Source: an uncultured Planctomycetales bacterium (GTDB lineage: Bacteria; Omnitrophota; Gorgyraeia; Zapsychrales; JAHFFX01). Taken from it: a DNA stretch of 64,000 bases. The translations under genes and the position numbers were made by a program. Position 1 is the first letter of the stretch. Each line of letters begins with the position of its first letter. Shown here piece after piece: positions 9,001 through 48,000 of this stretch. Location: the NCBI GenBank assembly GCA_964612665.1, contig CAZTCI010000001.1, forward strand, positions 508,896-572,895. Direction: 5' to 3'. The notes below the pieces were generated by a model. The model saw only the letters and a list, made by a program, of their open reading frames with translations, did no database searches and had not been told where the DNA came from.

Positions 9001-12000
9001 GCGGTTTGCATCGATCATTTGCTGCGCTTCGGCGGCTTCATGATCTAAACGTGAACGGACATTCTTAAGTGTCTTAAACTCGACGGAAGTTTCATTGAAA
9101 TTGGGGAATGGATTATCTTGCGGCATGCCTAATTCGTTACGGACCTGCGCCAATTCTTCGGGAGTCAATAACTGCGAATGGTTTCCTTCCTGACCAATCA
9201 TCGGTCTTAGACCCCAGCCTTTGATCGTATGCGCAATAATTACCGTCGGGCGATCGCTGGCGCGGGCTTCGCTCAAGGCTTTGATTAACTCAACCAAATC
9301 ATGGCCGCCCAAATCGGTAAAGAGCTCATAGATTTTTTCATCGCTGTATTTCTTCAAGAACCGCTTTATTGGCCTTTTCCTTTCCAAAGAGAGTTTCTTA
9401 TTCTTATCATCCAAGGGAAAAGGCCTAATATTGACTTTTGTTTCTTCCTTTGGATTCACAAAAGTCAATAAAGAAGAACGTTGTTCGATCATCCAAGCGC
9501 GGATTCCGGCGCCGTTTTGAGCGGAAAGATTTTGGTAAACTTTCTGGTCGATTGTTTCCATAACTTTCCTAAAGACACTTCCCCCTCGTCGGGCAAAAGC
9601 CGCTTGCAATTTTCGGCCCCAGCGCAGTTCAACGACTTGCCATCCAGCCGCCGCGTACATTCCGCGCAGTTGATCCAATTTCCAGTTTTCGGTATTTCCG
9701 TCGAGTGATTGGCGGTTGTAATCGACAATATGCGTCACGCGGTCCAAGTTAAATTCTTTCACTAACGTCAGAATCTCCCGCAGGTTTCCTTCTTCAGATT
9801 CAGCATCACCCAAGACCGCGAAGAAATGCGAATCAGAAACCGCATGGCCATGCGCCTTGAGCCATTTCCAAACAACGTTAAGTGCTAAGGCAACCGCCGG
9901 CCCTATGCCAACCGAGCCCGTCGGAATTTTGACGCCGTCCGGGTCCGCCATTCCCGGATACGCGTGCAGGCCTGGTTTGTCTAATTCATCCGTGTTGACT
10001 TCCGGATGCTTGGCGATGAAGGCGGCTTTTAATTCTTCAAGTTCTTTTAAGACTTCTGGCGCAAGACGGCCCCTGATATCTTCAGCCCTGAAATCAACCG
10101 GCAGCCGGACAGCGTTATCACGCAAACGATAAAGTGTATCGACGGGTAATCGACCTAAAAGATATTGAATGGCATGATACACCGGCGCGGCGTGCGGTTT
10201 GTGGGCGACAAAATCATGACCGCGCATGACAGCCAGCTCGAGGGCGATCATAATGTGCAATGCAGACGCGGATGCAGCCTGGTGCCCGCCGGTTTTAGGC
10301 AGTTCATATTTAATTTTATTGGCTTCATCAATTTCACCGATTGAAATCCCAAGCGCCCGACGGGCGATGCTTTCTAAAGCTTCGATGTCCTTCGGTGCAA
10401 ATCCTTCCGGAATTTTATCATTTCTATTTCGGGGAGGCCGGTGTCCGGATGAGCTCATTGCAACAATCATCATCGTGGACAAGAACAACGCAGCCACATG
10501 TCCACCTACGAAGTAGGACACAGCCAATAGTCCATCCAGTGCCAGCGCGATGAGGACAAGCGCAGTTGCAAATACGGTGGAGAGGTTTTGATCTGAGCAT
10601 TCTTTTATTCCATTTTTTGTTTTTTTGGTTTCCTGAGCTGAAAACTTTTTCCACCAGGCAAACGTTTCACTCAAACCCGTCCCAATATTCTTTTGTCGTC
10701 TCAACTTGTTGACAATCAAAATGATTAATGTTATGTTGGCGTCGAAAAGATCATTGATCAATAATTGCGTGGCCCTCTTTGAAAGATGGGAGAATCGTAA
10801 GTGAAGATCTGGGAATTTGAATGGGACAACTGGAATATTGAGCATATTGCTAAACATTCCGTAAAATCTCAAGAGGTAGAAGAAGCTTGTTATCGCCGCC
10901 ACGTCGCTAAGAAAACTAAAGATGACATTTATCTTGTCTATGGTCAAACGTATTCTGGCCGTTATCTTTTCATCGTTATTAAATATAAATCTAAAGGAAT
11001 TGTTTACCCTATAACCGCTCGAGACATGACTGATTCTGAGCAGAGATTCTTCCTTAAACGGAGGTAACATATGATTAAGAAGTCTTCTGTAATCCCAAAA
11101 TTTAAGAATGTCGCCGATGCGGCTGAATTCTTCGATCAACATGATACGACCCAGTTTCTCGACGAATTGCAACCAGCGCATCTTAAGTTCCCTAAGCCCA
11201 AGCATCTTTTGATCACCTTGAAACCTAAACAAATAACGAGGCTCAGACGCTTGGCCGACAAAATGGGTAAACCTTCCGATCAAATTGTTGAGCAATGGAT
11301 CACCCAAAAACTTGCCGAAGGGTAATGATCTGCCCAATGTGGCACGGCTCAATTTCTTTACAATCTCTTTAAAAACGCCTTTCGCTTTATCTGAGGATTT
11401 GGTTCGAATCGTCAGTATCAACAGCAACACATCAACGGCCAACACAAGGAACATCAAATGTAATCCCGGTCCCGGAACAAAATATCCTTTAAACACAACC
11501 ACCGGACGTTCCTCATCAGGCAGAAAACCTAATTCCTCGCGGATCTCCTCGGGAGATATTCTTAAAATATGTATGGGCTGAGGATGATCTTCAAAATATT
11601 TTAAGAACAGGCTTGTAATCGTTTGTCCGTTATCAGAAGCAATATGAAGACGGCCCAGAATAAAAAACGTGTCTTTAGCAGCTTTTCGGCCGCGCGATAA
11701 GATATTGATCATATTGGGGAACATGAATGGTTCCCTTAGGTCAATAGCGAATCTAAAGTTCTCCGAGACATTGATCCCTTTCAAAATTTCTTGAACAGCG
11801 GGCTCGGCCTGGCCGACGACATGATTTTCGCGTTTGGCTCTGGCCATGAGGGCTTTTATAAAAACAACAGTCAAATCACGCCAAGTTGTCAAGTCTTTAA
11901 GCATGTCCGCTGAGTTATCCGGGGGCAATGTTACGATCGCGGAAAAAACGAGACTGTTCCGGGTGTTGTAATAAAGAGAAATGCGTCTGTATAACGTTGT

Positions 12001-18000: not shown

Positions 18001-21000
18001 CGGTAAAATGATCAAGATTTGGGCAGATGAGGTTTTGTCGCGATAAGTCTTTTCAAATTTTCTAAGTGATTTCTCGGTTTTAGAAAGGACGTCATTATAT
18101 GAAACAACCATGAAGACCGCTGCTGATACAAACATCAACAACGGCAAAACAAAATGCCCAGTTCCCCGGACACTTTCCCATCCGGTAAAGATCGGCACCA
18201 GAAAGGAATTTTCCACCTCAACATCGGAAGTTGAGGTCATTTTGCTCTGATTTTGCAGGATCCGAGCTATCCGGGAAAGATAGAGAACATAAATAACGCT
18301 TGCGAAACCAATAAGCAACGTGAACAATTCTCCATTGAAAGCAATCATTCCGAAACCAAACAACTTTGTACGATCTTCCATGAATGTTTTAAGGAAATCT
18401 CTCATCTTTTCTTGAATTTGAGATCGAAAGATATCCTGAACCCGGCGAGGCATAATATTCATACGGGTGCCCGCTTGTTTCCATGCTTCAAATTTTTCTT
18501 TGGTGAATTCTGCCATGAGCCATTGATCTTCTTCGATGGTCTTCAACATGCCACCTTTTTGGGGGTCAAACATTTCACCCAAAACTCTTGAAAAGTCATT
18601 CACATCAAAAGCGACCATGCGACCCAGCTTTCCATCATGAGAAAATGTCAGACCGTAATTTTCTCGCCAATTATGAAAATCGCGATCAACCAGTCCATAT
18701 GTCCAAATCCGACGCGTCAAATTCGAGAATTCGTTTTGAATGTGCCGAAGCTCCATTTGCAAAGCACTCACCTCATCCCACTGTTTATGTTTCTCAGAAA
18801 TCTTTATACGACGGGCAATGGCATCCAGCACTTCTCCAACGGGATGCACGCGTTCTTGAACAATCACATAAGGGAAACTGGTAAGTTTCTCATCCACGAC
18901 AATCGTCAAGTTATTTAAAATAGTCAACGTCATGGCAAAAAGATGGCCCAAATGTTCTTTAACCAATAGGTATCCAGGCAACACTTCTCTCTCGAAGTCC
19001 ACGTCGGCCTTCGGGACCTTGATAATAAGATTTGGAAACGCATAGGAGTAATATGCTTTCATCAGCCCGCCTTGGTCCAAATAATGAAAGGTATGACCTC
19101 GTAGAATACCTTCAACGGTGGTGATTCGAATGTGGTCAAGGTGTTCCTGTAAAACAGTATCCTCTATTCCCATTCTACGCCCCCATTGCATCAACCTTTC
19201 AGGCCAGCCCTCCATATAATTGTCCAATAGCGCTTCCAGAAGAGCATCTTTTAAATTGTTCCTGATCCGACGTGATATAGGTTGGAGGTGGCGTTGAATT
19301 AGTTTTTGATATAACCATCTGAGTATTAATATTAGAGTAACAGCAGTAACTGCGATCAACACCCCTACACGCCACCCATGCATCAGCTCGCTAGAAATAA
19401 GCTGGGCGTTGGATTTTTCCGTTGTTACATCAACCTGCGGGGCCGAAACAGATGAAAACATTTCATCCACCAGCCGTTTGGCTTCCTTGGCCGCATCCAT
19501 GCTTGAACTCATTTTTCCCGAAAAAATGGAAATCTCTCGCGGACTTAAATGCTGAACCGTCGTCGGCCGCGCCGCATTCTGAACCGAACTCACCAGAAAA
19601 TCTTTGAGGGTAAAGATCGAACCAATATGGATCGGATTGAAATCGTGGAAGAATCGATGAGCTTCTTCTTTGATTTGGTCAAATGCCGTCACCGTTGGAT
19701 TCCAGATGATATCGCGTCCCAGTAAATCTTTATACTCATCGGGAATTTCTGGAAATTTGCCAACGTTGAGATGATGAATCGAGTGCTTCACATGAGCGAT
19801 AAAGTGCGCATTATTGCCTAAAGGATTGATCCCGACAAACGGCCCGTCCATAATCAAAATACTTTTGCCCCGGAATGCCGGAGGAAGAAGGACGACAGGC
19901 AACTCAAAAACTTCGAATTGATAGTTTTGCTGATTGGCCGGTTCCGCAATGAACCGATTAATATCGCTGTAAACGGCGTAGACAACGGCATCATAGTTCT
20001 TTAATTTTTCCGGAGTTGCCTCCTGAATGAGCACCTGCACATTGAATTCCTTAAGTTTATCAACGGAGATCTCCGCCAGCTTGCGGATGTTCATAAAGTC
20101 TTCCCCAACAAGCAGCGATAATCCCACAGAATTTTGTTTTAACACCTCCGGATACTTTGTCTCGTAAGGCAAATTAAAACGATTTAATAAAGTCAAATAC
20201 TGCTCGGGCGTAACCGCGCTTCCTTCCGCGGCGATTGCATAGTATTGTTCCAAACTCAAAACCGCTTCACCGAAGACACTCAAAAAGCTTTCACGAGAAT
20301 TAATGACTTCTTGGACAGTTTCTGGACTGCGCGGGTGATGATAGCCGCGATGCAAGCGGCGATCCCAATTGCCGGACACGCCGCCGAAGAGTTTGTTGCG
20401 TTCATACAAAGTCACATCGTATCGAGAATCTTGAGCAATAAACCATGCGGCCGTGATCCCGAAGATTCCGCCTCCGATGACAGCGACTTTGCGTTTCGAT
20501 GGAGCAACAAACGCAGAACGGGACGCCGAAGGAGGTATCCCGGCATCGGCACTCAAATCGAAATCAAAGTATGGCTCCTCAAGCATGTCATCCAAATCGA
20601 TTCCCTCGAAGACCTCTCCCGAATTATCATTAGATTGAACAACTTTAGGATTCACGGGTTCTTCATCTTTCCAATTCCATCCGCCCGCTGCGATCTTTTC
20701 ATCAAACAACCGATGCGGATAACGCATAATGACCGCGTTGACGCCGGCGAATCCGCCCATGCCGTCGTGAACATCGTAACGGCCGCGGATGATGTATTCG
20801 CGATTCCAACGCACCGCTCCGTTTTTCTCGTGATAGCCTTGCGCCGCGTCGGGACTGTAGGTCAGCAATTCTTCCAGAGCATCGCGCCAGGCTTGCAAAG
20901 CTTGAATGTAAATGACCGCAGTGCCGATCCCGCCGACTTGCTTGCCTCGCACGCGATAATGATCGACCCGCGGATGTTTGGCCACAGCCAAGACCGATGG

Positions 21001-24000
21001 AATCGGCGCTCCGACGGAAAAATTAAATCTGACATTGCCATCGTTGTCCTGGATTCCTTCTCCAGCGAGCGTAAAGCGATTCGTCAGCGTCTGAACGTGT
21101 TCCAAAAATGTGCCTCGAAATTCCTGCGCGTCACCATGCTGAATCAAGTCGATCATCTCCGGCGTTAGTTTTTTCTGAATGCTCCAGATCACCGCGCCGA
21201 TGTAACGTCGAGTCACTGCCGAGCGAATCATTTTCCCATCGGCATCCAACGGGTGTTCGAAGACCTCCGCGACCACATGTCCCGTTGGGTGATTCAGAAT
21301 CATGGAACGAATTTGACGCGGACGGATCTGTTCGTAGGGCTGATTGACCCACGCGTCGTTATGAACCTGATAAAGTTCAAGGACATTCTCCAACGTCGGC
21401 CAGCGATACACAATCGTAATCCCCTGCTCCGGACGCTCCTCGCGCACGAACAGCGCCAGGTCGTCCAGCGGAATCTGCTCTATATTAGGAAAGAAGCGCT
21501 GCAGGGCATGATTCAATGTCGTGGGGATGTCTTGCCTTTGGAGCGCCAGCGGCGACGGAGCGGTGGACTCAAAATTCTTGATGCGGAATTGATAATATTC
21601 ATCTAAGGTGCTAAACCACGTTGAGAGCGGATGGCGATTGTTCTGGCGCCGAGCCGCTTCAAGAAGGCGGGAAGTTGAGCCAGAGAAGAACATCGTCGTC
21701 AAATGGCCGTTCAGATGGAGAGCTCTGGTATGAAGGATGGATACAACAAGGACTAAAATAATAGCCAAATTCAAAATCATCATCCATCCCCTGTCGTCAA
21801 AACCGTGGATGGCGAGGAAGTAGGTATGGGTGTTAGAATCGGCCGGACGAGTTACATAAGAACTCTGTCTAAGGACGGTCGCAATCAAAGCGAAGGCAAC
21901 GACAATGTATATATTAGAGAAGATACCTCGAACCTTTTTCTGATCTCCTCCGAACGCCTGCTCCATCGTTTTAGTCTCGAGACGGCCGGGATTGAATGGC
22001 GTCCGATCTTCCATCACTTTCCTTAGAATTCTCAACCGCCCGCCCAAGGCCAGTTCGCGGGATTGTCTGGCCGTAATGACATCCACATCCTGATCCGTAA
22101 ATCCGCGGGTTTGGAAATTGGAAATAGGATGCGCGTTAAAATTCTTGAGACGGGAATATTGTGCGTCGGTCAACCGGGCCTTGGCTTCATCCACATAACG
22201 GCCGGACGCAATCATTTGATCGGCTAATCCTTGAGGAGCAAAGACCCCGAATCGGGTCGGATGCTCCCAAACAACAATGATCACTCCCATTGGAAGACTC
22301 GCTAAAAATTCTTCTGTCCATCGCCGCGTCGATTCCAAGGGCGAAATGGTTCGATCGAGTTTGCGCGTTAGCCAAATATAAATATATTCATAAGCAAATT
22401 TTAAAAACACAACGTCCGCCGGCTTTATGTCTCGAACAAACGCTCTCATTTCATCTCTCGACATCAAATCACTCATATGATGATGAAGAGGCGCCAACTT
22501 TTCCAATCGCAGAATCGGATGACCGACGATCCCGACCAATTTTTCTTTCAGTCTTTTAAAACCCATCGTGATATCCCACTCACTCAGCCGATTGTCCACA
22601 GTTGTCATGGACGAAACATAATAACCGGCAAATAAATCAATCCCGGAAAGGATGTTGTGGAGTTGCGTATTGTTACGATTGAAGATCCCGATGGCGGAAA
22701 GGAGTTGTAATTGCAGGAAATAAATTCTGACTTTGATCGGAATCACGCTGTGTACGGTGAGCTGATCCTCACCGAGCCGAATCTGCTCTTCAATTTTACT
22801 GAGGATTTTTCGAACCGATTTTAGTGAATGGAGGAATTTAAATTTGAAAATGGAAACGACCATGAGTAACACGATGGCCAAATTCAAAATCATCATCCAT
22901 ACCCCGTCGTCAAAACCGTGAGTGCCGAGAAAATAGGCTTTGGTGTTGGAATTAGGAACCATGCACGGCATGTTCCACCCGATCATCATGTATCGGTTAA
23001 AAACAGCGATATCATGGTTCCCATCAGGTTTGACACCTCCAGTCATGTGTGTTATTCTTCCTTCACCGGAGGGGGACAACCAATGCATAAACGAAAGGAT
23101 AAAAACATGAACGCCATCAACATGACGGACATCGTCCGCAAGTCGATGCAAGAACTTGTTGTCCCTGAGTTGAAAATCTTGCAGGGTGATGTTCAGAGTC
23201 TCTAGAATGACAATCTTGAGATCAAGGCTGATCTTCGGATCCTCAATAACCGTGTCGACAATCTGGAAAAATCTTTGAACAGCCGGATGGATTCTCTCAA
23301 CAGCCGGATGGACTCCCTCGAGAAAAGGCTGGATAACTTGGATAAAAGGGTTGACGGCCTTGAAAGGCAAATTCATAGCATGCGCGAGGATTTTAAGCTC
23401 GCGCTCGATATTCATGAGCGGCTCACTGCGCTTGAAGTCAAAATTTCTCATCATAATTAGGCAGTGGTTTTGTTGACGAATCATCGCCGGGCCGATTTCC
23501 TCAAAGTTATATAAAGGAAATCGGCCCGTTGTTTTTTGGTTGCTGTATACGATTTTATAGAACGCCGTCACTGTCGAATCCCAGATCATATCGCGCCTAA
23601 GTAAGTCTTTATATCCCATCCCACCGGATTGACCATACCAAATGAAATAAACCAATGCCCATAAAACCAAGGCCACATCAATTCCAACCATGTATGATAA
23701 ATATGCCGATTGAACGCTGTTTTTATTTTGATCTGGCTCAAACGCAAACAAGCGCACGGACAGACGCGAATTCATATTCCTTAAAAGTTCATTTTGCTCA
23801 TTTATGATTTTTTCCAAATTCAACCGTCTCGCGATGGCCGCCGCGCCCACCAGTGCGACAATAACTTGGATCTCCCGTTGACCGGGCAGCCAGTTTTCCT
23901 GAAAATGCAGACGATTCATCTTCTTGATCAATTCTTTCTTCAAATTTAATTTTATTGATCGAATTTTGCCGGCCCGGGACGACAGAGGCACGTCAAAACT

Positions 24001-33000: not shown

Positions 33001-36000
33001 ATACACAATTCCCTCAGCATAGAGATAATATTGGATTTGTGCATGGCTGTTATTAAAAATGCGGATATCATCAACCGAAAGATAATGCGGCCCATCAGGA
33101 TGATTGTGCAGGTCCAAATAAACGAGGGGATAATCTGGATTTAGTTCCGGACCGACGGAATCCTTATCGCCTTTGACGATACTGTAAAGGTCCCCTTCCA
33201 AGGATTGATGGGAAACTTCAAAAGGTAAATATCCAGAGGCGACGGTGTAAAAACGATCAATCGCGCGCCAGAACTCCGGCGTCCCGACGGCCGCGGCAAA
33301 TGGTCGAGCGCTGTAGCGTGTTCCTTCCTTCGCACTAATAATATCCTGCTTTATCTGATCGAGCGTCATGACTGGCCGACGCTGGATCCGGGAGATAAAC
33401 TTCCGACGGATGAATTCCTGGGCTTCCAGTTCATGGACGGCCATACCGATTATCGCGACCGCCGTCAGGCCGAGCAGGCTAAGCCAATCGGTATAGGCGG
33501 AAAGTTTTTCCACCTTCCCAACCCCGGAGGTTGGGGAGGATAATAATTTTTGGCTAAGATCTGCAGCCACATCCAAGTTTTCCAACACTTTCGTCGCATC
33601 TTTAGAACTTTTAATAAAGACAACCGCCTGAGAAACCGCCGCCGATATTGTTTCTATTTCGCCGATCATCGGAAAACTTCTCTTCCAAATAGCAAACTGG
33701 TGATTCCACGCAGCCAAACGCAGTTTGATGGCCAGATACCTCTTATCGGCCCATAACTCCTTCACTTGATCTCGGGCATGGACCATCGACGGGATTCGGT
33801 CCAAGGACAGGAGCAATCTTTCCTGATTTTCCCGTCGTTGTGCTTCCTGAAGTTCCCGTAATTCTTTTCTAATTTGCTGTAGTTCTTTTAAACTATGGAA
33901 CAATTGCTCAGTGGACGGGCCTTTAAGGACCGTCCGCGACATAGCTGCTGCCATTGCCCCCATCCCAGCAGAGAGCAATATCTTTCCGACGGGGATTCCA
34001 AACCATAACGCGGTCCCCCCATCTACACCTACGAGGTAAAGATGGATCCCCACTCCATACAACGCCAGTGCAATCATGACGGATGGAAATATGGCGAAAA
34101 GTTTTTCCACCTTCCCAACCCCGGGGGTTGGGGAGGATCTGAGGATCACCGCCAGCATTTCAATTAGTCCAACCAATCCCTTAAACACAATCCAAATCCA
34201 CACGGCTTCGATCGTGACGGCGGAGACGTTCTCGATGGGATTGTGATCGAATTCTTCTAGCGCATCGATTTTTCCGTATAAATATTGGGCCAAATGGCGG
34301 ATATCTTTTCGATAGTCGTGCGTCTTAACCAAATCCCAGAGGTTCAATTGTTCCCATTGATCGCCGGCAGCTTCGAGAGCTGCTTGGATTATCTTTAACC
34401 ATTCCTTCGCATAGAATTCTCGATGACGGAAATTGGACGCCACAATCCAGTGCAGTAATTCTTCTTCGGAAGATGTCTTCAACATCTCAATCGCGGCCCG
34501 GCGTTTGGCTGGCGAAGTGACCACCAAATCATTCATCCGCAAATGCTCGTTGAGAATGTGCTTCAGGCGCCGAGTCCTGGCAGAATTCGCCAAGCTGGTT
34601 TTATTTGTGAAGTCATCAAGAGAATTGAACGGATTGTTTAGCTTGCGAACCATCACCACAAATTCGGTCTGCGTCATTGTAAATCCACTCAAAAGAAAAT
34701 CCACCTCATCAGCGTAATTAAGGAAATATAGAATTTGTTTTTTGGTGTTTTTCGGGTGCTTCTGCAATTCTCGACGATGTTGCTCCGCATTTTCTTTCTT
34801 CTCTTTTCGTCTTTCGTTCTCTTTCTCTAAATCCGCCCGTGCCCTTTCACGAGGATTCTGAAATAGAATCTCTCGACGGTTTTCGGACGTTCGTTCCCAC
34901 GACATCGCAAAGACAAAGATATATGCCAGCAACATCCACGGACTGAACAGATAAGTACGAACTCCGGAATGATGGACGATTTGTTTCTGTGGAGTTTCTT
35001 CTTTAGTTGACAAGCCAACTTTCAGGGCTTGGGCGCGGCTGGCGGAGAGGTAAATCAACCGTTGAACAAACATGCCCGCGATCATCAGCACCGTAAAGAC
35101 ACTCATTCCCGTCGATAAATCGATCGTCACGGCGCGGTGTTTTTCGATATCAGAAGAACGACTTGGTGTTTTATCTTGTGCATTCAACCTGCGGGGTTGA
35201 ATGGACATCCTGTTCCCCTTCACACCTCCGAGGCGCGAAAGAGCATTATTTCTTAGCTTTTTACGAATACTTATAATTTTTAACACTGAACGAATATGCC
35301 ATTCTCTTAGCCCCAACCGCTCTTCCCGGATTTCTAATCTATCCCCAGGATATTTTTCAAAATCTGCAGTCACAATTTCGATAAGCCGTTCCCTTTTTTC
35401 TAGCTTTTCTCTTAAACGCACTCCCGCGGCTTTCTGCTTTAAGAACGTTAAATCATAATCCGGCCATATTTTGCTAATAATGTAATTCGACACTTGTTCA
35501 ATGTATTGATGCGATGATCCCATCTGTTCGACAATGATGCTTGATGATTGATCCAAAGCTATTTTGCGGACTAACACTTCTTTTTGCGGGAGCGTTAGTC
35601 CATACCTATCTCCTATATCGTTAAGGGTCCTTACAAGTCCTTCTTTAGTGATGGCATAGCCACTACTCTCCATAATGTCGCGAGCAAAACTTACTCTATT
35701 ACCATGCTCCATCGCTGTCTCCTGAGACGATAGAGAAGATCGGTATTCCTGGATCCCTTTTTGGCGATCTCGGTTTCGCGCATATGTATTTCGTTCGCCT
35801 CGAATTTTTAAATTAATTCCATTAACGACATATGTCAATAAGCCTACGCCATTGCGCCGATCAAATTTGATCACACTGCTGCGAATAGTTTTAATGAAGT
35901 CATCTGTTCTTTCCTTTAGGAAGGATCTATTCCATCTCTGTTTAACTAAGGGCATTTCTGTCAGACCGGCGATGAGGACTTCCATCGCCAAACCATCTTT

Positions 36001-39000
36001 CTTATCTTGAATAAGGTCAATTAAACGGCTCTGTTGCTCACGGCTTAAATATCCTCTGGAATGACGTGGCATGCCCAAGATCGTATTGACAGCGGCTTCA
36101 TCTCTTTGCTGAGGAGCCCAAATAATTTTAAGTTTAGACTCTTTAATAACCGGCACAGGAGGATTCAGCCCGTACCATTTCTTCATTTCATAAAGAATTT
36201 CTACTGAGCTTTTTCCTTTTAGATCGTGATTTTTTGCCCAGTTCAGCAGAAGCCCCTCTAAACATTTTCCTCCAAACCCTGGAATACCTGTATGAATAAT
36301 ATCGCCCACTTTTAAATCTACTATCTTCCCTGCACGGCGATGATTGGCTAGATGTTGAAGGATCGCCCATTGCAACCGCTCTTCAAGTTTGTCCCAGGAG
36401 AATTTCCTCGCCCGTCGGAATTGATCCAATACCGTTTCCAATTCTTCAAGGGTTACTGGTTTTTCTTCTGCCATCGTCATAAGAACAGCAGATGCGCAGA
36501 GGACTGCTATCCACGCTTCCGCACCTACGAGGTGCTGATGGGTAACCATGGCGACGAAAGCGGCGGAAATGATGATAAAGCGGAAGACTCCGTCGAGGAA
36601 ATCATTCAGTCGGCTGGGTTGAACAAATACAATTCGACGCAAAATGGAATTCACATTGTCTTGGCCGACATACGCAAGCGCCGCCGCAATTCCTACCAGA
36701 ACAAAAATCCATAAGGATGGACCAACGGCCATCAGTTTTATCTCTCGATCCCAAAACTGACTTGGCCCACACCGGCGGACAACAAATTTCTTTTCCAAAT
36801 CCTCTTTGACCGTCGTCACATCTTCTTGGACGATCGCGTCCGCCACACGTAAAGAAAATCCCATTTGCAGGGCCTGACGGCCGGGCATGGATGGGCTATA
36901 TCTCAAGCGAAGCCCCTGAATCAACGCGCGATAGGGCGCTTCCTGTCCCCGGAGAAACTTAAGGAAGGCAAACTGTTTGATTTCTTTGGTGGATACGGAG
37001 GTTTCAATATTATTTCTAAGATACGCTAAAAATTCTTTGTAATAACTGACCCAGTGCTCAAGGATTCTTTCCAGCCCCAACTCATTTAATTGTTTGTTCA
37101 AACGATTTGTGTTCCCAAAGACCAAATCTGTCGGTTTAAATTTATCAAATGTATCGGAGGTAATAGGACTCAATAAACAGCGCTCATTTAACGTTGATAC
37201 ACTGAGCTCATGCTTTTCGCCCCCGATTCTGACCCACCGCCCCAATCCCCGTCGGGCCAGGGCAATGAGATATTCGGGTTCGATATCAAATTGATCTTTC
37301 CCTTGATAATAAACGTGAATGTCCAGGTCCTTGATCATGGACCACAATGGGATTTGATTTTCGCTAAAAAGATAGGTCGAGGAGCCGGTGACCGTGATGA
37401 TCGGAGCCTCCACAATGGATAACGTAGCGACTTGCTTTAGAAGTTCGATTAAATCGACCGGCGGTAAAGCTGGATTGTCTGGCTGAACAATAAACTGGCG
37501 CTCAGGACGATAGTAGGAAATGTGTTCATCTTGGTCCACGATCAAAACAGGCCAATGCACTGTTTGGACCGCCGCCAGTAATATCAGCGCGTAGACCGCC
37601 TCGTTCAAACCGATCAGATCTCCGTGGGCCAAAAGACCGGATAAAGCCGCGAGGATGGCGATAGGGCGGAAGAGTTGTGCGATCAACCTGCGGGAGTGAA
37701 CAGACTTGATAAAGCGGAAAATTCCGTCGAGGAATAACATCACCCTCTCCGACGGCGGCGAAGTCTTGAGAAATTCGTAAAACGCGCGGAGGTTTTCAAG
37801 GATGACGCGGGATTTGGAGATTAGAACAGCGGCCATCAAAACAATAATGAGAATTTCCGCGAGGTGAAACACATTATTCGACGAAAAATTTGATTTTCTC
37901 GTCGGTCTTATCCGTGCAGTCGAAAGGAAATCGATTCGATGGGCGTTCAACGTCGCGGCATCTAATAATTCAAACCCTGGGAATGTTTGATCGACGATAT
38001 GTTTAATCAAATCCGCCAACTGATCCGCAGGGATTTTGATTAGATATCCTGGAATTCGGTGCATCTGCTGAGGACTAATTTCCCTCATCTCTTCTGCAGT
38101 CAAAAATTGAACCGCGGCCATCGATACAACCCGGCCTTCTAATCTGTTGACAGTCCATTTTCGCGACATTATACTTTGAATCGAAAAGGAGATAGATTGA
38201 TGACTTCTCTTCAAGATGCTATGAAAATCATTAAACCGCTTCAAAACCGTTTCAAGAAAAGCCATAAGTCCAGAAGAAAAACGAAGATTGCCGACGATCT
38301 TTTGGGTGCGTTCAAAGGTGCGACCGAAGGTAAATCTTCCAGTCAATGTGTTCGAGAATTGAGAAATTCTTCTTATGGTAAGTTTAAATAACCCTTCCTT
38401 GCTCTTGGACTCCGATGTCCTTGTCAGCTGGTTGACGCTCGAAGAAGATATTCTTACCCATAAAAAGCTCTGGGAAGCTCCCCACAAAATAATGACAATG
38501 GTTGAGGAAAATTCTTCTCTCGGTTGTTCAACGATTATCAATCTTATGGAAATCAGGTTTGTGTTGCGTGCTAAGAAGAAATTCAGTGAGCATAAGATTA
38601 CATCTTCTCTTAATAAACTCTCCGAGATTCTGAAGCTATTCATTCCAGATGAAATCAACCTATTAAAGGCGAATGAACTCCAGTCCAAATATCTTTCATT
38701 ATCGCCAACCGACGCTATCCTTCTGTCTGTGGCCACAACCCTAGACAATGTTGTCCTAATCACCCGCGATCGAGAATTATTGAAAGCTGCCTCAAAAATT
38801 GTCTCCGCATCAACTCCTGAAGAATTTCTGGCGAAACGCTGATCTCTTCTGTTCCAATAAAAATTCCCCACCAGCATTGCAATTAGCCCAACCACTCCCT
38901 TAAACACAATCCAAATAAAGCGGAAAATTCCGTCGAGGAATAACATCATCATCTTCGACGGCGGTGAGGTTTTAAGAAGTTCGTAGAACGCGCGGAGGTT

Positions 39001-42000
39001 TTCGAGGATGACGCGGGATTTGGATAGCAGAACAGCGGCAACCAAAATAATGATTAGAATTTCCGCGAAGTTAAAGGAGTTATTCGTTGGAGAATTCGAT
39101 TTACCCGTCGATCTCGTGGCGAGAGCTCTGCTGTCCTGAGATCTTCTTTCTGTGGTGACGAAAGTTCCTACCCTTCTTAAAATTTTGATAACTCTATCCC
39201 TTCCCTGAAGGTTATTAGAACTCTGTCGAGATTGGGGTTGTTCAACGATCGGCAAAGTGACGAAAAAGCTGGCGCCCTGGCCCAACTCGCTCTCCACATC
39301 AATCTCTCCATTGTGCGCCGTAATAATGCTTTTCACAATGTAAAGTCCCTGGCCGGTCCCGTCTTTTCCTTTCGTCGTGAAATATGGCTCGAAGATTTTA
39401 GAGACCAGCTCGGGCGCGATCCCGGGGCCATTGTCTTTCACCTCGAATTGCACGAGGGGCGCATTGTCGATTGGCGTGACGATCAACTCAATCTTTCCGT
39501 CTGGTATCTGCGCTAAGGTATACACCGCATTCTTTAGGAGATTGATAAACGCATGCGTCATCTGAATTTGTTCGACATCGATTCTAATCCCGGCGGCAGC
39601 GGAAAAATCAATCTGAAGTTGCTGTGGATCGAAGAGAGCGAAGATCTCTTCAAAATGTCCTCTAAGATTAGTCAAGAATTCCTCGACGGAAATGACTTTC
39701 TTCTTACCTTTCCCGGAATAACTGAGATAAAAATCAATGATTATTTTAAGCCGGTGGGTAACGCTGTGGAGGGTTTTGAGGACTTCACGCTTGGCTTTAG
39801 GCTCAACGATACCTTGATCGATATTTTTGTCTTGCGGATGCTGGCGGAAATCTTTGACGAGCTGCTTCCAGGCGCGATGAAACTTTTTCAGTTCAGGTAA
39901 ATCATCGAGAAGGATTTGCAACGCCAACATAATTAACCTTTCGCGCTGTTCTTGTGTAAACGGTTGGGCATAATTTTCAAGCACCTGTTGTAATGCCGGA
40001 TTGAATAACCCACCTATTGGCCTTTTCTCTCTTAAAGATAAGGTTGTTCTGTCATGCTCGGGGAGAAAAGGCCTAATACTAGACTTTTGCAATGCAAAAG
40101 TCAGTAATAACTCCGCTCGCTGTTCTCCTGTAAGCAGCTCAGCATATTTTTCAAGCATCGCCCGTTTTAATTCTGGGTTTGATAATGACTGAATATCGAC
40201 ATAAGGTTGATCAGATGCGGCATGGTTGCGAAGAATCTTCAAATCATTAATTTTCTCGAGAAGATTTAAATCCATAATATTCTCACTCAAAGATTGCATA
40301 GCGGATTTGAATGGTTCCGGCAAAATATCGGCATTACCGTTTGCCGGATCAAAGAATAAAGTAATCACGGTCAAATCATTGCCGATTTCATGCAGGAAGA
40401 CCGGCCCCAAATCAGCGATGATCCCCTGCCAATAATCTTCTTTTGGTATCCGCATTACCATAACGACAACCATCGATAGTCCCAGCAGCCAATTGAACGG
40501 CATAATGTATACGGCGTTTCTCTCGGTTGGGAGCTTCATAAATACATATTCCCTTCTGGCCACTGTCTGAATTTCAAGACCAAGCGGCTTTCGGTTTAAC
40601 GTTTTGAGCATTTGGGTGATAAAGTTTATCCGCCGCAAAACTGATGTGATCGGCATGCTGCTGCCATCACCCAACGTCGTCCCTGGTTTTTCTTCCAGCA
40701 GCATCTCCATGGTCTGCCCAATAACTGTCAAGGCCCCGGACAGATTTATGACGACGGGCCCGTCTGTAATAGAATTTCTAAACGCCGTCCCCATCACATT
40801 GCTTTTCCGCACTAAAGCGATCAAATCCTTGGCCTTTGGTGTCGTATCATTGCCAAACACAGGGTCGGATTCTGCCTCCTGCTTGACGTTTAGCATTGCT
40901 TCCAAAATCAATCTTGCGGACTCGCGTGCCCGTGTCGGATCTCCTAACGCTTCGCGTTGGCCATTAACAAATTTAACGAACTTAACCAGCTCCGTGCGCA
41001 GAGCCTTAATCCATTGCGGCCATTCTAGGTAATAAAATAATTGTTCCAGGACTGCCATAATAAGGAGCGTGCGTTCTCCGACGGGTTGGATTGGATTTCT
41101 AGATATTTGTTCTTCTTTCTGTTCAATGTCTAGAATCAAATGCCAGACTGGCTCTACAAATGCTTTCCTCTCAAGCAAGCCCCTTGTATATTTGAAGAAA
41201 TCATTCTGAGATTCATGATGACGCAATACTCGACGGGCAGCCAAACGGGCCATGGGATATTTCATGGAGCCGATTAAATCAGTCAACGTAAGATAATTTT
41301 TTACAAAGCTGCGCAATCCTGGCTCTTCAATCAATCCTTTAAACTCAATCAGCTCGGAAATAAAACGGAAATAGAAAACAAACCGTTCTCCGCCGGCCTT
41401 ATAAAGGATCCGTTTCCTTCCCGTGGCGGAAATAGGCCTATCATTTAAAACTTCGATCAGCCAAGCAGCGATCAAAAGTCTTAATGCCTCCATGTCCTCA
41501 TCCTCAACCGGCCCACTTAAAATCCACGCGCGTTTTTCGTCGGTGGAAAGGGCCAGGAGATTATCGAGACCAGTATACTGGCCGCGCACCGCCATCAAAA
41601 ATACCGGAGCGCTCAGCAACATCAAAGACATTCCCATCCATAAAACGGTTTTGATGGCGAGTATAACCAACATCAATCCGCCCACGGCGCCGACCAAGGC
41701 GATGGAATGCAATTTCTCCTCGAGCTGCGCGATTTTATTTTCTATTCCATTTGTCTTTTCAGATTCTTGGTCTTTCTTCCCGTTTCCATTCAATTCAGTG
41801 GAATACGCTGTCAGAGTGAATAATTCTTTTAAGTCCTCTTCCCATTGCTTATGAAAAGGAAGGCTCTCTGCATATTCCTGGAAGAGACCTGCGCGCAGCT
41901 GACGCCACACCATATGGTCGAGCAAGACCTGACCATTGATGACAAATGCCTGCGCAAAGTGTCTTAATTCCTCGACGTAGGCCGGATATTTCTGTGAGAT

Positions 42001-45000
42001 CTTTTGTAAAGAAGACAATTCCTCGGATAGAGAATCTTTCTTAAGCAAAGCATCCACGTATTGTTCAATCTGTTGGCTTTTAGCATAGTCATGGTCTTGC
42101 GATAAACGGATACGTTCTTCAATACGATCCGTGGCTGTTTCAAAAGCAATGATCCAATCGGCATCAGAACCGGAGAATTCCGAGACATAGCTTGATACCC
42201 TGGACTTTAATAAAAGCCTGTGCGTCGTCCCGGCCTCACCGTTACGGGCGATACGGGCCATGATTTGTCGCATATCACGTTTGGAAAAAAGAACGTTGTA
42301 AAGAACAGCCACAACGCCGGAGGCAACATTGGTCAAAATATTCACCCCTCGGCCTCCCATGGGACTGGTAATAAGAATCGTAATCTGTAAGCGGCCTTTC
42401 TGGTTAATAACATAACCGGCCTTTTCAAATTGACCGGCTTCTTCCCTGCGCTTTTCAGGATTTTGATCGATCCCTAAAACAGTCTCAATCTTGATATCAT
42501 TGTTGGGCCGGCCTCTTTCCAAGATGGCGTTTAATAGTTCCTTGACATGATGGGCCGAAGCGATATCTTCCGTCGCGATAAAAACCGGCCTTCCTGACAA
42601 TAAAGCATTCATAACAATTTCGATTAAGCTTTGGTCCATCTCTTCCACGGTCTCATATCCGATGGAGGAATGATCAACCCGGATGGATTTGATATCGGAG
42701 GGTTGAACATACACTTGCATGTTCAATCTTTTCTTTAAATGCTGTTCAATCGTCGGACTCATCTCTGAACCACTGACCGCGGCATAGCCATGTCTATACA
42801 ACTTTAAAAGGGAGTGATACGTCAAGGCCGCCAAAAGCCGGCGCGGATTCTTTTCATTGTCGATACCGGAACGCGCTTCTATCATACGTTGTACCTCGGG
42901 AGAATAAACACGCAAAATGTCCGGGCGTTTACTATCGTCGGGAATAGGCAATACATTTTCACGTTTAGCATCTAAACAAAAATCATGATCCTCTTTAAGG
43001 TTCCAGCCAATCACCGCAAAGTCCGCCAGCTGACGCAAATGCGCATCAGAGATTTCATCTAATTCCCGACGATTTCTAAGAAATTCCATAATCTTCCGCG
43101 GGTCACGCCAAACCACTTGTCTTCCCTGATCGGAAGAAATAATCTCTTCGGGATTCGTAGCCCAATCTTTCAACAAAAAGAAGACGTCCTTATCAAAACG
43201 ATGCCACGCTGTATAGGCTGCGATAATTCTCTTCACTAATTCTTTATCCTTACCGTTGACGATGATGTCGATCGACAGAGTATTCAAGACGGAGAAGATA
43301 TCCCAAAGATAATAATCCGCCTCATCCAATAAAGCCCGACGATCAATGGTCAATGGTTGTTCTAAACTTTTTCTGGTCGAAATTTCTCGCGCCAGGGCTG
43401 TTAAAGAAATATATCGGATCTGTGCTTTGCCGGCTTCAGCCCAGAGAGAGGAACCAAAAAATCTAGTGAACCTTTTTGACTGGCCCGGAATAAGTAGTGT
43501 ACGGGACCCTTCGGTGATGCAGCTTACGGAATGCCCCAAAGAAGCCAAAATCCCGGCCTGACTGTTAAAGCCGTCTTGGGCCAAATGATCTGTCGTGGTG
43601 ACGATATCCGTTGATACACCCATTTTCTCCAGAGCATCGGCCGCCATCGACAAGGCCATGGTTTTTCCGGCGCTGGTATCAAACTTGACAAAATATCCCC
43701 GCGATCCGTCTTCGGTCCTCGGTTGCATCAAGAGTTCAGCAGTTTTAAGTTGTGCGGGGCGGCGTTGATACTTAATCATAATATTCTTATCAGCCATCCT
43801 TCGACGCGCAATGACCTCAAATTCCTCTAATGATTCCCTAATTACGTCGGGAAAATATTCGCTCAAGGATAAAGGCAGATCGGTCCACGCCACGCCATTT
43901 TGTATCGATGTTTTAATAATTTCTTTTTGTTCACTGAATACGTTCAGTTGAGGGGTGGGAGTCTCGTCGATCTCCCCAATGATATTCGCGGGCGTAGATA
44001 AAGATTCCATCTGAAGTCTTTCTGCCTCCTCTTCCAACGGCGAAACTTTTTCCGGACGCTGGAACTCAAACGACATCTCGGGTTCAGGAGGCTGAAAAGC
44101 AATTCCAAAATAATGGGCGAGATGATGGACTGACTTAAAGAATCTTTCCATTGATATCTCAAATCTTCCTTGTTCATAATTCTTCACTGACGACTGGCTT
44201 AATTGTAGAATTTCGGCAAATTGAGTTTGAGATAAGTCCAGCTCCTTACGAAGATGGGTTAAATTCAAGAGATATTTTTTCAGTAAAGCATTCTGTTGGC
44301 TGTTTGGAGAGGATTTCGCTTCTTGTTGAACATCATTGATGAATTCTTTCACTTCCGTCGGGACCTCACTGGAAACATTGTCCATTAAGAAATCTATAAC
44401 CTTCTTCATTGACTTTGCGCTAAGTTTCCATGCCTTGGCAGAACTTGCGTGATCTACAATATATTTTTGCCCTCCCATCGACGCGATCATTGTCTCGACA
44501 GAGTATCTCTGCTTAAAACGATTTAGTAAATGCTTAATCGGCTCGCTCAATCTCTTAAAAATTTCGCGTCGTTCTTCTCTTGATGCACGCAAAGCTTGTG
44601 CATACAAAAGCTGTATCTGCTGCTTCCACTGCTTAATGTCTCGAGACCACTCACCAATGGGCTGAACATCCTCATTCTGCCCACCGAAAGTAGAGATGAT
44701 GATAGATTCATCGATGAGCTGAACATTCTCATTCTGCTCAAAAGCGATAGGAATCTCGTCCGCCTCTTGTAATGAAATCAAGCTAGAGATTGGCTTTTCT
44801 TCTTCAATGAACTGAGTATCCTCATTCTGCTTACCGATCAAACTTTCATCGACCTCAGGCAAAGTTAATTCAAAAGTCGTTTCTTCATCGCTTTCTGGAG
44901 TAAGGATGATGATAGATTCATCGATGAACTGAACATTCTCGTTCTGCTCAAAAGCGATAGGAATCTCGCCCATCTCCCCAATTCCATTCGTGGGCGGAGA

Positions 45001-48000
45001 TAAAGATTCCATCTGAGATATTTCCGCCTCCTCTTCCAACGGCGAGACTTTTCCCGGAAACTGGAACTCAAACTTCATCTCGGGCTCAGAAGGCTGAAAA
45101 GCAATTCCAAAATAATGGGCGAGATGATGGACTGATTGAAGAAATCTTTCCATTGGTATCCTAGATCTTCCCAGTTCATATTCCGACACTGACCACCGGC
45201 TTAATTTTAGAATTTCGGCAAATTGGGTTTGAGACAAGCCCAGCTTCTTACGAATGCGGGTTAAATCCGAAAAATATTTTTTCAGTAAAGCATTCTGTTG
45301 GCTGTTTGGAGAGGATTTCCCTTCTTGTTGAACATCATTGATGAATTCTTTCACTTCCCTTGGAACCTCACTGGAAACATTGTCCATTAAGAAATTGATG
45401 ACCTTCTCCATTGACTTTGCGCTAAGTGTCCCCGCATCGGCAGAACTTGCGCGATCTACGATATATTTTGTTACTCCCATCAACGCCATTTTCTCGACAG
45501 AGAATTCTTGCTTAAAGCGATCCAGTAAATGCTTAATGGGCTTGCTCAATCTCTTGCGTTGTTCTTCTCTCGACGCACGCAAAGCTTGGACATACAAAAG
45601 CTGCATCTGATGCTTCCACTCGTTAATGTCTTGAGACCACTCACCCATGGGCTGAACATCCTCTTCTTCTTTCCGTAGAATTTCTTCCGTCCGTTGGGAC
45701 TCAAACTTCGTTGCGGGCTCAGAAATCTGAAAAGAAATTATTGAAAACTTTTGAAAATAATTCTCCACAATTCTTTCTAATAACGGTGTTTCCTGCATCC
45801 TCCAAGGACGAATTGTTTTGCCTTTGTCCAAATCATTCTCATCGCGATGAGAAAACTTCGCCATCCCCAACATCACGCCCGCGAATCCCAGAAGATTAAT
45901 GAACGCGATGAAATCCATTGCATAAAAATGCGCCGTTCCGATCATGGCCAGGATGGATGCGATGATCTTTACAAAAATTCCGTTGATCATTGTAAACAGC
46001 ACCATCGCTCCCATAACGACCGACCAAACCACCCAACCACCGGCCACGTTGAGAAATACGATAGAAGACAATGTGCTTATCCCCGATGGGACCAATTCAA
46101 GTTGCTCTGGATTGGTTTGAGCAATATAAGATCTAAATATATATAGTTTCTCAAAGTAACTTTTATTTATGTCGGAAACGAGATAATCTAGACGATGATG
46201 ACTAATTCCCTTTAATCCTTCCAACCGTAACATCGCATTAACAAAATTCATGGCTAATGAATTATTGCCTTTGCGGAATAAAAACCATTGGCTCGATTCA
46301 TCGTGCCCAAAAGTGCCTAAATAGAAACCAAAAATGCGTTCAATACGACTATTGATATCCTTCTGTTGCTGACCGTCCTTGACCCATTCCCCCAGATGAT
46401 TCATCATCTTGAGAATCCGTCGATGAATATCCTCTTTGGATCTCGCTCTCAGTTCTCCTGCGACATTCAAGGCATAATCCTCACTTGGATAAAAGCGTTT
46501 TCCGTCCTTGCCTAACAGAAGAATGATATTAAAATTCTTAAGCCAAATTAAGAAATCTTGGGTCGTGGTTATACGGTCCGAGACGAAATTGAATAACAAA
46601 CGCAAAATCTCTCCTCGAACTTCGTGGGAATTAATCCAATAATTCCTCTGCTCATCCATCGACGGCCATATTGCTAAAGTCGAAGGATCCGGGTTTCTGA
46701 TCATTTCTTCTTTAGGTAGCTGTAAGGCATTTTCCCAATTCCAAGTCGGCATGGCCCGTTTGAACATCGCCAGTTCTTTTGTCGCCACATCAACAGAAAC
46801 ATCCCGGTCTTGCTGAAGAACCGGATCAAAAATCACAACAGTTGGATTTTCCGAAGTCCCCTTCACTGCCATCCTCACAGCACCCGCCATAACGATCGAT
46901 GCGATCCCCAGATAACCAATCATCGAATGCCCAAGCCAGGCAGCCGTCAATACCTCCAAAAGCCCGGTAATTCCGACGATAAGAACCCAGTGATACCACT
47001 TTGCTTGAGCCAATAGCTCATGGAAAAATTCCTTTGTGTCTTGAACGATGACCTTCCAACTCAGCCTGGTCCTCCATGCCCGTTTCCACTCCATGACCAA
47101 GATGAGGAATTGAATCAAAATAATCAGGCCTGTTACGATTGTGATGACAAGATCGGCCGTCGGTGAAAGTTCCTGTTGGGGCACCACATAGGCCGCCTCG
47201 GTCAAGCTTGGCAGAATCCCCTGCAAAAACAAAACGCCGGCAAGCACCAACAACAGCGCAATAGCCACGAATACGAAATCAAAAATTCCTGCTACCGTTA
47301 CCAGATCTCCAAATCTCTCAGAAAACTTCGAAGATAAAATCCGTGCATTCCAGCCAAACGGAGAAACGAGGCCTTCATCCCCTAGGTGGATTTCCGGTAA
47401 ACGTCTCAAATCCAAAATCAAATGATCCTGGCCAGCCACTTGGCGTTCTTTTATTTGGTAAATTCCTCTGAAAAAGTCATTGTTCCGTAAGAGAAGATAA
47501 TCAAATTGGGCGGCTAATGTTTTAAGGAAATTGTTTTCTGGTTTGAAGAAGTCCCGCGCTCGACGGTACATTCTTTGTTTGGCCTGCGTTTTGTTCAGTC
47601 CTTCATGTTTTTGATAATAGGCGCGCACGGCCTCGTGGTTATATCCGGCCATATGATAGACGCCGAGCTTAACGATCCTTTCGTTGAAATAAAGCTCAAG
47701 CGATACGAGACTTGACTCTTTAGATGATCCGAATAGATCAATCGAGACAAGATTTAAATTTTCATTAACCTCAATCTGTTGAACACCGTCCCAATCGTGA
47801 GTTAATTCCAAAACCCATTGCTTGAAGGATTCTGATAATTGATCATCATTAACAAATCGCATCGATGCCAGCGTCGAAGAATTTTGGTCCATCATTCCCG
47901 CGGTAACAAAAATCATCGCCCACAACACCCCGATTCCACCTACGAGGTGGAACGTGGTCCAAACGGCGATTAGGAAGGAAGGTATAACGGTGAAGCGGAA

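Follow-up and report, generated by a model that had tools for sequence, protein, structure and literature searches.

Direct repeats bracket a predicted PIN toxin-antitoxin cassette carried antisense in a giant open reading frame

We analyzed a 64,000-nt stretch of contig CAZTCI010000001.1 (positions 508,896 to 572,895; the whole stretch is called the window below), in which a two-gene cassette for a putative PIN-domain toxin and its antitoxin lies between two direct repeats, on the strand opposite to a giant open reading frame (ORF). A six-frame stop scan showed that the giant ORF occupies the minus strand from 1 to 63999, comprises 21,333 codons without a stop, and runs off both ends of the window. 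Its product has about 70 hydrophobic segments (72 Kyte-Doolittle peaks), which are often paired. The Pfam domains found in it are SecA_DEAD (28.6 bits, cut-off 24.6), P-loop_SecA (21.8 bits, below its cut-off), HATPase_c, Response_reg, several HTH_3, GerE, and Sigma70_r4_2, together with Transketolase N and pyr, DAO, a methyltransferase, and TPR.

The ORF looks like a giant gene of the Omnitrophota type, with soluble domains and paired transmembrane (TM) helices in alternation. In Candidatus Omnitrophota, giant genes have numerous TM regions and divergent SecA DEAD domains (West-Roberts et al. 2023, 10.1101/2023.11.21.568195), and the window ORF has more than 10,000 codons, numerous TM regions, and a divergent SecA DEAD-like domain. 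It is also like the published examples (10.1101/2023.11.21.568195; 10.64898/2026.06.07.730766) in running to tens of thousands of codons, in its many TM helices, and in containing HATPase_c, which is among their common domains. The window is without a marker gene; the loci that share its cassette come from metagenome-assembled genomes (MAGs) labelled Candidatus Omnitrophota or “uncultured Planctomycetales”, and by this company the host is a putative member of Omnitrophota.

The only plus-strand ORFs in the 1006 nt between the repeats (37909-38914) are those of the toxin-antitoxin pair. The toxin gene (38375-38842, plus strand) encodes a 155-aa protein that matches the Pfam families PIN (E = 9.5e-9, 36.4 bits, cut-off 23.6) and PIN_3 (3.9e-6, 28.1 bits, cut-off 27). 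Twenty-four stand-alone proteins of equal length are homologous to it (36-66% identity), and the acidic residues D12, E59, D113, and D132, invariant in a 25-sequence alignment, are all kept in the window protein. The gene upstream (38200-38391, plus strand) overlaps the start of the PIN gene by 17 nt and encodes an antitoxin-like protein of 63 aa. Searches of Pfam (E <= 0.01) and NCBIfam found no family for this protein. It can be aligned with the homologous proteins of 57-62 aa that are encoded ahead of every embedded PIN described below, with M1, T2, A7, A31, L34, L35, G36, G40, S47, and R55 invariant; contigs with PIN homologues likewise have a partner of this type, 58 aa long, before the PIN gene. 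A sigma-70 promoter, TTGACA-17 nt-TATACT (38147-38175, plus strand), agrees with the consensus at 11 of 12 positions and is the best in 37000-40000, and a Shine-Dalgarno site, AAGGAG (38186-38191, plus strand), stands upstream of the 63-aa ORF.

As in VapBC-type systems, the cassette is a two-gene operon with the antitoxin first and a PIN protein with four conserved acidic residues, here with the 17-nt gene overlap and a promoter of its own. It differs from them in that its antitoxin belongs to no Pfam or NCBIfam family and in that it is set in the antisense strand of another gene. Judged by its genes alone, it is a predicted intact type II toxin-antitoxin cassette of the PIN/VapBC-like kind. 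The GC content of the cassette (39-41%) is uninformative because it falls within the local range of 38-52%. A tblastn search of the rest of the window (E <= 10) found no remnants of other PIN or antitoxin genes, and an exact look-up of the PIN protein in public assemblies returned no record of it as a called gene.

On either side of the cassette there is sequence that is read in the giant frame only. Between its promoter and the first repeat (copy A) lie 77 codons (GRVVSMAAVQFLTAEEMREISPQQ...STARIR; 37909-38139, minus strand), which have no homologue in the window or in 143 other loci. A decayed plus-strand gene was considered as an origin for this spacer and was rejected because every plus frame contains stops and no homologue was found. 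On the other side, 24 codons (WIVFKGVVGLIAMLVGNFYWNRRD; 38843-38914, minus strand) complete TM helix 2 after the second repeat (copy B) and form the right edge of the insert. A TM-coding patch elsewhere in the same gene (WIWIVFKGLVGLIEML; 34146-34196, minus strand) is 90% identical to 38865-38915 in this right edge (blastn E = 6e-14). The first-pass annotation of this DNA had described the bracket as the PIN cassette plus about 90 aa of giant-protein sequence; the measured length is 77 aa plus 24 aa.

Repeat finding and blastn place copy A at 37709-37908 and copy B at 38915-39114, each 200 nt long and ungapped with respect to the other. They are identical at 168 of 200 bases (84%) and, in the minus-strand giant frame, at 78% of the protein. 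Their starts are 1206 nt apart, that is, 402 codons. An earlier claim of repeats of about 195 bp at 37711-37905 and 38917-39111, at an offset of exactly 1206 nt that keeps the frame, with both copies coding for the same TM plus LKTSPPS plus LFLDGIFRFI junction, is therefore borne out with slightly wider ends. Each copy codes for a hydrophobic helix, AEILII(I/V)L(V/M)AAVL, a loop, SKSRVILENLRAFYE(L/F)LKTSPPS, and the start of a second helix, (M)LFLDGIFRFI. In copy B (minus strand) these are TM helix 1, the loop SKSRVILENLRAFYELLKTSPPSKMMM, and the first half of TM helix 2 (LFLDGIFRFI), and a histidine-kinase ATPase domain (HATPase_c; 39247-39570, minus strand; Pfam E = 2.1e-22; residues 144-251 of translated 37000-39999) lies just N-terminal of it. 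Copy A (minus strand) has the same coding content, but KSVHSRRLIAQLF... comes next and the hydrophobic helix is not continued. The sequences that follow the two copies are mutually unrelated.

Along this stretch of the giant gene a TM junction comes up every 1.1-1.2 kb, and the similarity of the copies could have been merely that between any two of them. We compared each copy by BLASTP, and a hidden Markov model (HMM) built from both, with the complete 21,333-residue product of the giant ORF. The next-best junctions (aa 9098-9145 and 4891-4941) were only 31-35% identical to the repeat copies, with E >= 0.03 by BLASTP or a domain i-E of 0.004 by HMM, and the repeat thus stands apart from the other junctions. 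Between the two copies dS is 0.41 and dN/dS is 0.30, and the differences fall mostly at codon positions 1 and 3 (13, 3, and 16 at positions 1, 2, and 3), which indicates that both copies are under purifying selection in the giant frame. The longest perfect block that they share is 34 nt, the only one above 20 nt, followed by blocks of 20 and 17 nt.

One edge of the repeat holds a 27-nt motif, GATAAAGCGGAARAYTCCGTCGAGGAA, which codes for FLDGxFRFI and occurs at 36574-36600, 37708-37734, and 38914-38940. These three matches are the only ones in the window, where the chance expectation is 0.00. Across these three successive junctions it is kept at 25-27 of 27 nt, most synonymous positions included. 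The third copy (36574-36600, minus strand; FLDGVFRFI, 25/27 nt) belongs to a junction, C, that illustrates the 1.1-1.2 kb recurrence and is otherwise only about 32% identical in protein. The conservation could reflect a gene-conversion patch or a function at the nucleotide level. As a general recombination site the motif was rejected because none of the other 143 loci contains it.

The giant frame reads through the cassette without a single stop, while the other two antisense frames contain 19 and 17. The third codon positions of the PIN gene and of the giant ORF coincide. When synonymous codons were resampled with the plus-strand proteins held fixed, the antisense frame was open in 53% of trials for the PIN gene, 5% for the antitoxin gene, and 2.7% for both. 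The giant-frame codon-usage score over the cassette is in the lowest 0.41% of all 200-codon stretches, and the peptide read there is rich in Ser, Arg, and Phe (predicted tryptic peptides include NSSGVDAETIFEAAFNNSR and ISESLLR). Stop-free and yet so poorly scored, the giant frame over the cassette looks constrained mainly to avoid stops. Of the two overlapping open frames, then, the plus-strand one encodes proteins conserved across their family and the giant one shows stop avoidance.

Long antisense overlapping gene pairs are known in bacteria, for example in Pseudomonas aeruginosa, and the available portion of that account (PMC8850804) describes two long ORFs on opposite strands with a stop-free antisense frame, as here. 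Pairs of that kind are thought to come about when a new ORF is overprinted on an old gene; here a two-gene cassette that already existed and is horizontally mobile lies inside a host ORF, and the host frame is apparently constrained only to avoid stops.

To compare related genomes, as the first-pass annotation had proposed, we fetched the loci of PIN relatives, 80 from metagenomes and 60 from GTDB species genomes; they are identified here by contig codes (L###). Every PIN relative of at least 49% identity is encoded antisense within an ORF that stays open from one end of its locus to the other, and so is the one on metagenome contig L046 (43%). These open ORFs span 2.9 kb in L001, 1.7 kb in L004 (the same as L003 and near-identical to L002), 1.2 kb in L046, and 17.7 and 20.4 kb in metagenome contigs L005 and L006. 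They span 10-12 kb in L084, L085, and L087, from MAGs labelled Candidatus Omnitrophota, and 12.5-16.6 kb in L086, L088, and L109, from MAGs labelled “uncultured Planctomycetales”. The window arrangement of antisense read-through is thus found again at the 11 embedded PIN loci, and at all of them the frame relation is identical, with coinciding third codon positions. More distant PIN relatives (Nitrospirota, archaea, and others) are ordinary genes.

The embedded PIN genes carry no antisense stop in 11 of 11 cases; their non-embedded relatives have 2.4 on average and are stop-free in 9 of 103 (Fisher 2.6e-10, with loci treated as independent). Tyr, His, and Gln together make up 2.5% of the embedded proteins compared to 5.4% of the non-embedded ones, or about half; these are the residues with codons that can give rise to stops in the antisense frame concerned. 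Neighbour-joining groups the 11 embedded PINs in a single clade that includes no other sequence. A promoter and Shine-Dalgarno site equivalent to those of the window are present in 10 of the 11 cassettes, among which there is no conservation outside the interval from promoter to stop. Since the giant-protein flanks are non-homologous between loci, the cassette is, to judge from this comparison, a discrete unit of about 700-740 nt that sits at different sites in different giant genes and has long been adapted to antisense read-through. The pattern describes a single PIN-cassette lineage, found only in giant ORFs, whose proteins and codon choices appear to have evolved for a stop-free antisense frame. 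The first-pass annotation had correctly placed a PIN cassette between the repeats; its antisense position was only implied there, and the read-through by the giant ORF and the cassette lineage had been missed.

The same comparison bears on whether the arrangement is an artefact, with either the cassette or the repeat an assembly chimera, or the giant ORF really two genes joined by chance openness. Metagenome assemblies can collapse or chimerise repeats, an antisense frame whose third positions coincide is intrinsically stop-poor (hence the 9 of 103 ordinary PIN genes that are open), and there is a minus-strand ATG at 38172. However, the copies differ at 32 positions and the repeat has therefore not been collapsed, and antisense read-through recurs in at least 11 independent assemblies from different projects. 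The openness, moreover, spans the promoter, the PIN gene, and the antitoxin gene (5% by chance) and extends to four other toxin-antitoxin families. The genetic code is the standard one, given that the plus-strand genes stop at ordinary TGA and TAA codons. We consider an artefact highly improbable.

We then asked how often direct repeats bracket such cassettes. In nine long sequences (the window and eight related loci), self-matches on the same strand of at least 40 nt and at least 74% identity, spaced by no more than 3.5 kb, were collected. Six of 14 antisense cassettes were bracketed, compared to 0.86 expected from random placement of cassettes in their own loci (P = 5e-5, loci treated as independent), and all the spacings are multiples of 3. 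Besides the PIN cassette of the window (200 nt, 84%, spacing 1206 nt), bracketing repeats surround the PIN cassettes of L088 (58 nt, 100%, 798 nt), L085 (45 nt, 93%, 1038 nt, with a second pair of 123 nt, 86%, 1683 nt), and L084 (155 nt, 95%, 2400 nt), the PIN_3 cassette of L086 (87 nt, 87%, 804 nt), and the MazF cassette of L109 (203 nt, 96%, 930 nt). The PIN cassette of L086 is also bracketed, by a 172-nt pair of 76% identity.

The repeated sequences are local and unrelated between loci; in the window, L109, L086, and L084 they are TM-coding. In three loci they lie within tens of nucleotides of the cassette. The perfect repeats of L088 enclose only the promoter, antitoxin, and PIN gene (740 nt), and the repeat of L086 hugs its PIN_3 cassette within 5-45 nt, with the promoter of the next cassette directly after the second copy. 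Where the repeats are 95-100% identical, the events must be recent, long after the cassette lineages diverged. We also observed that each L088 repeat (9670-9727 and 10468-10525) holds a perfect 16-nt palindrome (AGAGGCGCTCTTTGCC...GGCAAAGAGCGCCTCT) within giant-ORF coding sequence; it was found in no other locus, and no attC core was recognised in it by eye.

These data speak to the possibility that the bracketing is incidental and that the cassette merely happens to lie between copies of routine in-frame duplications of modules or TM junctions. Such duplications do occur: several local direct repeats in the window contain no cassette (43958-44678/44960-45667, 86%; 21737/22850, 81%; 33496/34093, 96%), TM junctions recur at the regular interval given above, and a second cassette in the window has no bracket. 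On the other hand, the permutation was run on each locus's own repeat background and still gave 0.86 expected against the six observed, and in three loci the repeats fit closely around the cassette. In addition, a plain tandem duplication of a module would not leave unrelated sequences after copies A and B. We regard incidental bracketing as improbable.

Because bracketing repeats are enriched around cassettes and all their spacings are multiples of 3, we favor the reading that the repeat is a frame-preserving local duplication of a TM-hairpin junction, made when the cassette inserted antisense into the giant gene. We hold this to be fairly probable. The first-pass annotation had likewise suggested a junction duplication linked to cassette acquisition, and the comparison of loci supports it. 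A cassette of about 700 nt would have entered together with a duplication of the local junction. The insertion itself may have produced the duplication by fill-in of a long staggered break; alternatively, a replication template switch could have copied the cassette and then re-copied the junction. Both copies would still be translated. The giant protein stays in frame because the added 1206 nt are 402 codons without a giant-frame stop, and the unit contains two predicted TM helices. An even number of helices would preserve the topology of everything downstream, and the membrane topology of the giant protein beyond the insert is probably unchanged. Insertions would be expected to survive only if they are antisense, free of stops, and a multiple of three bases in added length, since the giant protein has to stay whole.

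The arrangement resembles the target-site duplication of a transposon in that the insert is flanked by a direct local duplication whose sequence differs from site to site. Unlike transposon duplications, which are short and of fixed length, the repeats measure 45, 58, 87, 155, 200, or 203 nt depending on the locus, and unlike transposable elements the cassettes show no terminal inverted repeats, transposase, or conserved ends. In the window the two ends of the insert share no inverted repeat of at least 12 nt, and the repeats contain no palindrome.

Several observations weigh against an origin at insertion. The copies are 16% diverged (dS 0.41), a figure that would fit just as well with junctions that are ancient paralogues, or with import of one copy along with the cassette. 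The insert contains 231 nt plus 72 nt of extra giant-frame-only sequence, which a simple cassette with target duplication does not predict, and part of it is the stretch whose 90% match (34146-34196) lies at a distance of 4.7 kb. The cassette ends carry no terminal inverted repeats, recombinase, or conserved end sequences, and for this reason no insertion mechanism of a known type could be assigned. Eight of the 14 tested cassettes have no bracketing repeat; no direct repeat of 20 nt or more brackets the second (BrnT/BrnA) cassette of the window, and giant genes carry a background of local in-frame repeats that have nothing to do with cassettes. Lastly, the searchable protein collections yielded no empty site, deletion variant, or orthologous giant gene for the window.

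That last result comes from three kinds of query. An exhaustive HMMER search with the 911 aa downstream of copy A gave eight weak matches only, at no more than 35% identity over a domain of about 180 aa, and no orthologue. A 1,101-aa query that included the histidine-kinase domain, both junctions, and module A retrieved ordinary histidine kinases only, and no giant-gene relative surfaced. Chimeric queries from which the cassette had been deleted (L088, L085, L109, and L086) gave no match at E <= 1e-10, not even to their source proteins; the collection is apparently without giant ORFs.

The divergence of the copies and the extra sequence raise the alternative that one junction was not duplicated in place and was instead imported with the cassette from a paralogous junction, in this or another giant gene. 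Import could have occurred by homologous (Campbell-type) integration of an excised circle carrying junction and cassette, or by unequal recombination or gene conversion between TM junctions. In that case integration would have used the repeat as its homology, and the 16% divergence would be that between donor and recipient. Single-crossover integration leaves a direct repeat around the insert. Import would account for a dS of 0.41 despite purifying selection on both copies and for the extra giant-frame sequence on both sides of the cassette, and the 90% match of the right edge (38865-38915) to the TM patch at 34146-34196 of the same gene fits it as well. So does the 27-nt motif, shared at 25 of 27 nt with a junction C that is otherwise about 32% identical in protein, which suggests conversion or recombination among junctions. 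However, no donor of the junction or of the 77-aa spacer was found in the 64 kb or the 143 loci, and a circle with homology to its target presupposes an earlier duplication. The repeats of L088, L109, and L084 are 95-100% identical and local, and the insert of L088 is the cassette only; duplication in place is simpler there. Import is in our judgment an unlikely explanation, one that nevertheless deserves to be taken seriously.

Whichever way the repeats arose, they are a physically plausible substrate for loss of the cassette by homologous recombination, as had been suggested for them before. Crossing over between the copies would take out exactly 402 codons, in frame and without a scar, with a single hybrid junction left behind; the 1206-nt deletion would join ...GGAATAACATCA to the sequence downstream of copy A. 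RecA-type recombination is possible and should be inefficient with such blocks, given its minimal homology requirements, because the copies are 16% diverged and their longest perfect block is 34 nt. The repeats may thus allow rare, scarless, in-frame loss of the unit. A post-segregational toxin penalty on such loss, proposed in the first-pass annotation, is plausible: the catalytic residues of the toxin are kept and its promoter is near consensus. If the toxin does penalise loss, the cassette would help to keep the giant gene intact.

The closest parallel on record is in chromosomal integrons. In the available text of Richard et al. 2024 (PMC13108822), promoter-bearing toxin-antitoxin cassettes in sedentary chromosomal integrons are proposed to kill cells that lose cassettes. 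The cassettes of the Vibrio superintegron, as described there, are small type II systems with their own promoters, belonging to several families and set in a large, repeat-rich, recombination-prone structure, and the same can be said of the cassettes here. Integron cassettes in that text are also bracketed by direct repeats and excised without a scar, and the bracketing at least is seen here. The differences are substantial. Here one translated ORF takes the place of a cassette array as the platform; the cassettes run antisense to this ORF and have to lack stops in its frame; and, unlike attC, the flanking repeats are duplicated local coding sequence of 45-203 nt. No integron integrase and no attC core motif, the latter judged by eye, was seen in the window and loci, which lie wholly inside giant ORFs.

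It could be speculated that giant genes of Omnitrophota-like bacteria serve as cassette platforms, in which an old, adapted PIN lineage spreads by frame-preserving, duplicating insertion and guards its host gene against internal deletion by killing cells from which it is lost. MazF, HicAB, BrnTA, and PIN_3 cassettes are embedded likewise; on this proposal the adaptation would consist of a stop-free antisense frame with depleted Tyr, His, and Gln, and the spread between non-homologous sites would match no known mobile-element mechanism. Taken as a whole, this joint proposal is tentative, and we think it somewhat doubtful as it stands.

How giant genes of 20,000-85,000 codons grow, gain domains, and avoid recombinational collapse is an open question (West-Roberts et al., 10.1101/2023.11.21.568195). 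A term search of the available text of the two giant-gene papers (10.1101/2023.11.21.568195; 10.64898/2026.06.07.730766) returned no opposite-strand genes, no toxin-antitoxin systems inside ORFs, and no insertion-linked duplications; in that text toxin-antitoxin genes appear only as genes flanking the locus or as mobile cargo. As far as the literature shows, an antisense toxin-antitoxin clade within translated giant ORFs, accompanied by frame-preserving duplications, is apparently new and is a variant on known themes. The loci suggest that foreign two-gene cassettes can enter a giant gene on the opposite strand without interrupting it, and that such insertions may leave a recognisable scar, a local in-frame duplication, as a searchable signature for giant-gene evolution. 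They point to a whole toxin-antitoxin clade specialised for the giant-gene niche and offer a natural case of one stretch of DNA serving two strands over a long time. The hypothesis that they suggest is that addiction modules stabilise giant genes, as has been proposed for chromosomal integron arrays. There is also a practical consequence: gene callers that report the giant ORF silently drop the toxin-antitoxin genes embedded in it, and the PIN gene of the window went uncalled.

The second cassette of the window consists of a BrnT-like toxin gene (10801-11067, plus strand; GTG start; Pfam score 29.5 bits, short of the gathering threshold) and a CopG/BrnA-type antitoxin gene (11071-11325, plus strand; 5e-9), preceded by the promoter TTGACA-17-TATGTT (10709-10737, plus strand). 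The giant frame reads through 10709-11325 without a stop, and its codon score reaches the global minimum there. A first codon-usage scan had flagged the PIN cassette only, and the BrnT cassette was found later from this minimum; that scan was an incomplete census, since it missed the second cassette.

Other families are embedded antisense in the giant ORFs of related loci: MazF/PemK cassettes in L005 (8445-8964) and L109 (10636-11209), a BrnT/CopG cassette in L006 (3922-4467), and a PIN_3 pair and HicB/HicA in L086 (14083-14749 and 14951-15396). In L085 (6789-7873) the giant ORF reads through three plus-strand ORFs, one of them retropepsin-like with a DTGA motif. L005 and L086 each carry two cassettes in tandem, each cassette with its own promoter. 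In L109 the embedded PIN (9977-10333, plus strand) ends after about residue 100, exactly where the 203-nt repeat that brackets the MazF cassette starts; the later MazF insertion appears to have destroyed an older PIN cassette.

Within the giant frame of the window, enzyme and signalling domains are fused in the sense direction, namely transketolase N-terminal and pyrimidine-binding, DAO/NAD-binding, and response-regulator receiver domains (7000-9999, 19000-21999, and 1-999, minus strand). Because these cytoplasmic domains are fused in frame and apparently whole, they suggest that the giant gene grows by absorbing ordinary genes. The ORF holds at least six HTH_3 domains in addition to GerE and sigma-70 region 4, and these could be what is left of regulator or antitoxin genes captured in the sense orientation. 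The cassette-free repeat at 43958-45739 (minus strand) is a module of about 330 aa, with an HTH_3 (Xre-type) domain, that was recently duplicated in tandem and in frame; its copies (43958-44678 and 44960-45667; 721 nt, spacing 1002 nt) are 86% identical in DNA and about 75% in protein. The direct repeat at 33496-33541 and 34093-34138 (46 nt, 96%, spacing 597 nt) contains the palindrome CCAACCCCGGGGGTTGG and adjoins the TM patch at 34146-34196; as a second bracket it was rejected, since it encloses no plus-strand ORF. Finally, 23030-23460 (plus strand) holds a further near-consensus promoter, TTGACA-17-TATTCT, and a GGAGG ahead of two ORFs, one of 40 aa (23083-23205) and one of 61 aa with a coiled coil (23275-23460), and may be a third, decayed embedded unit.

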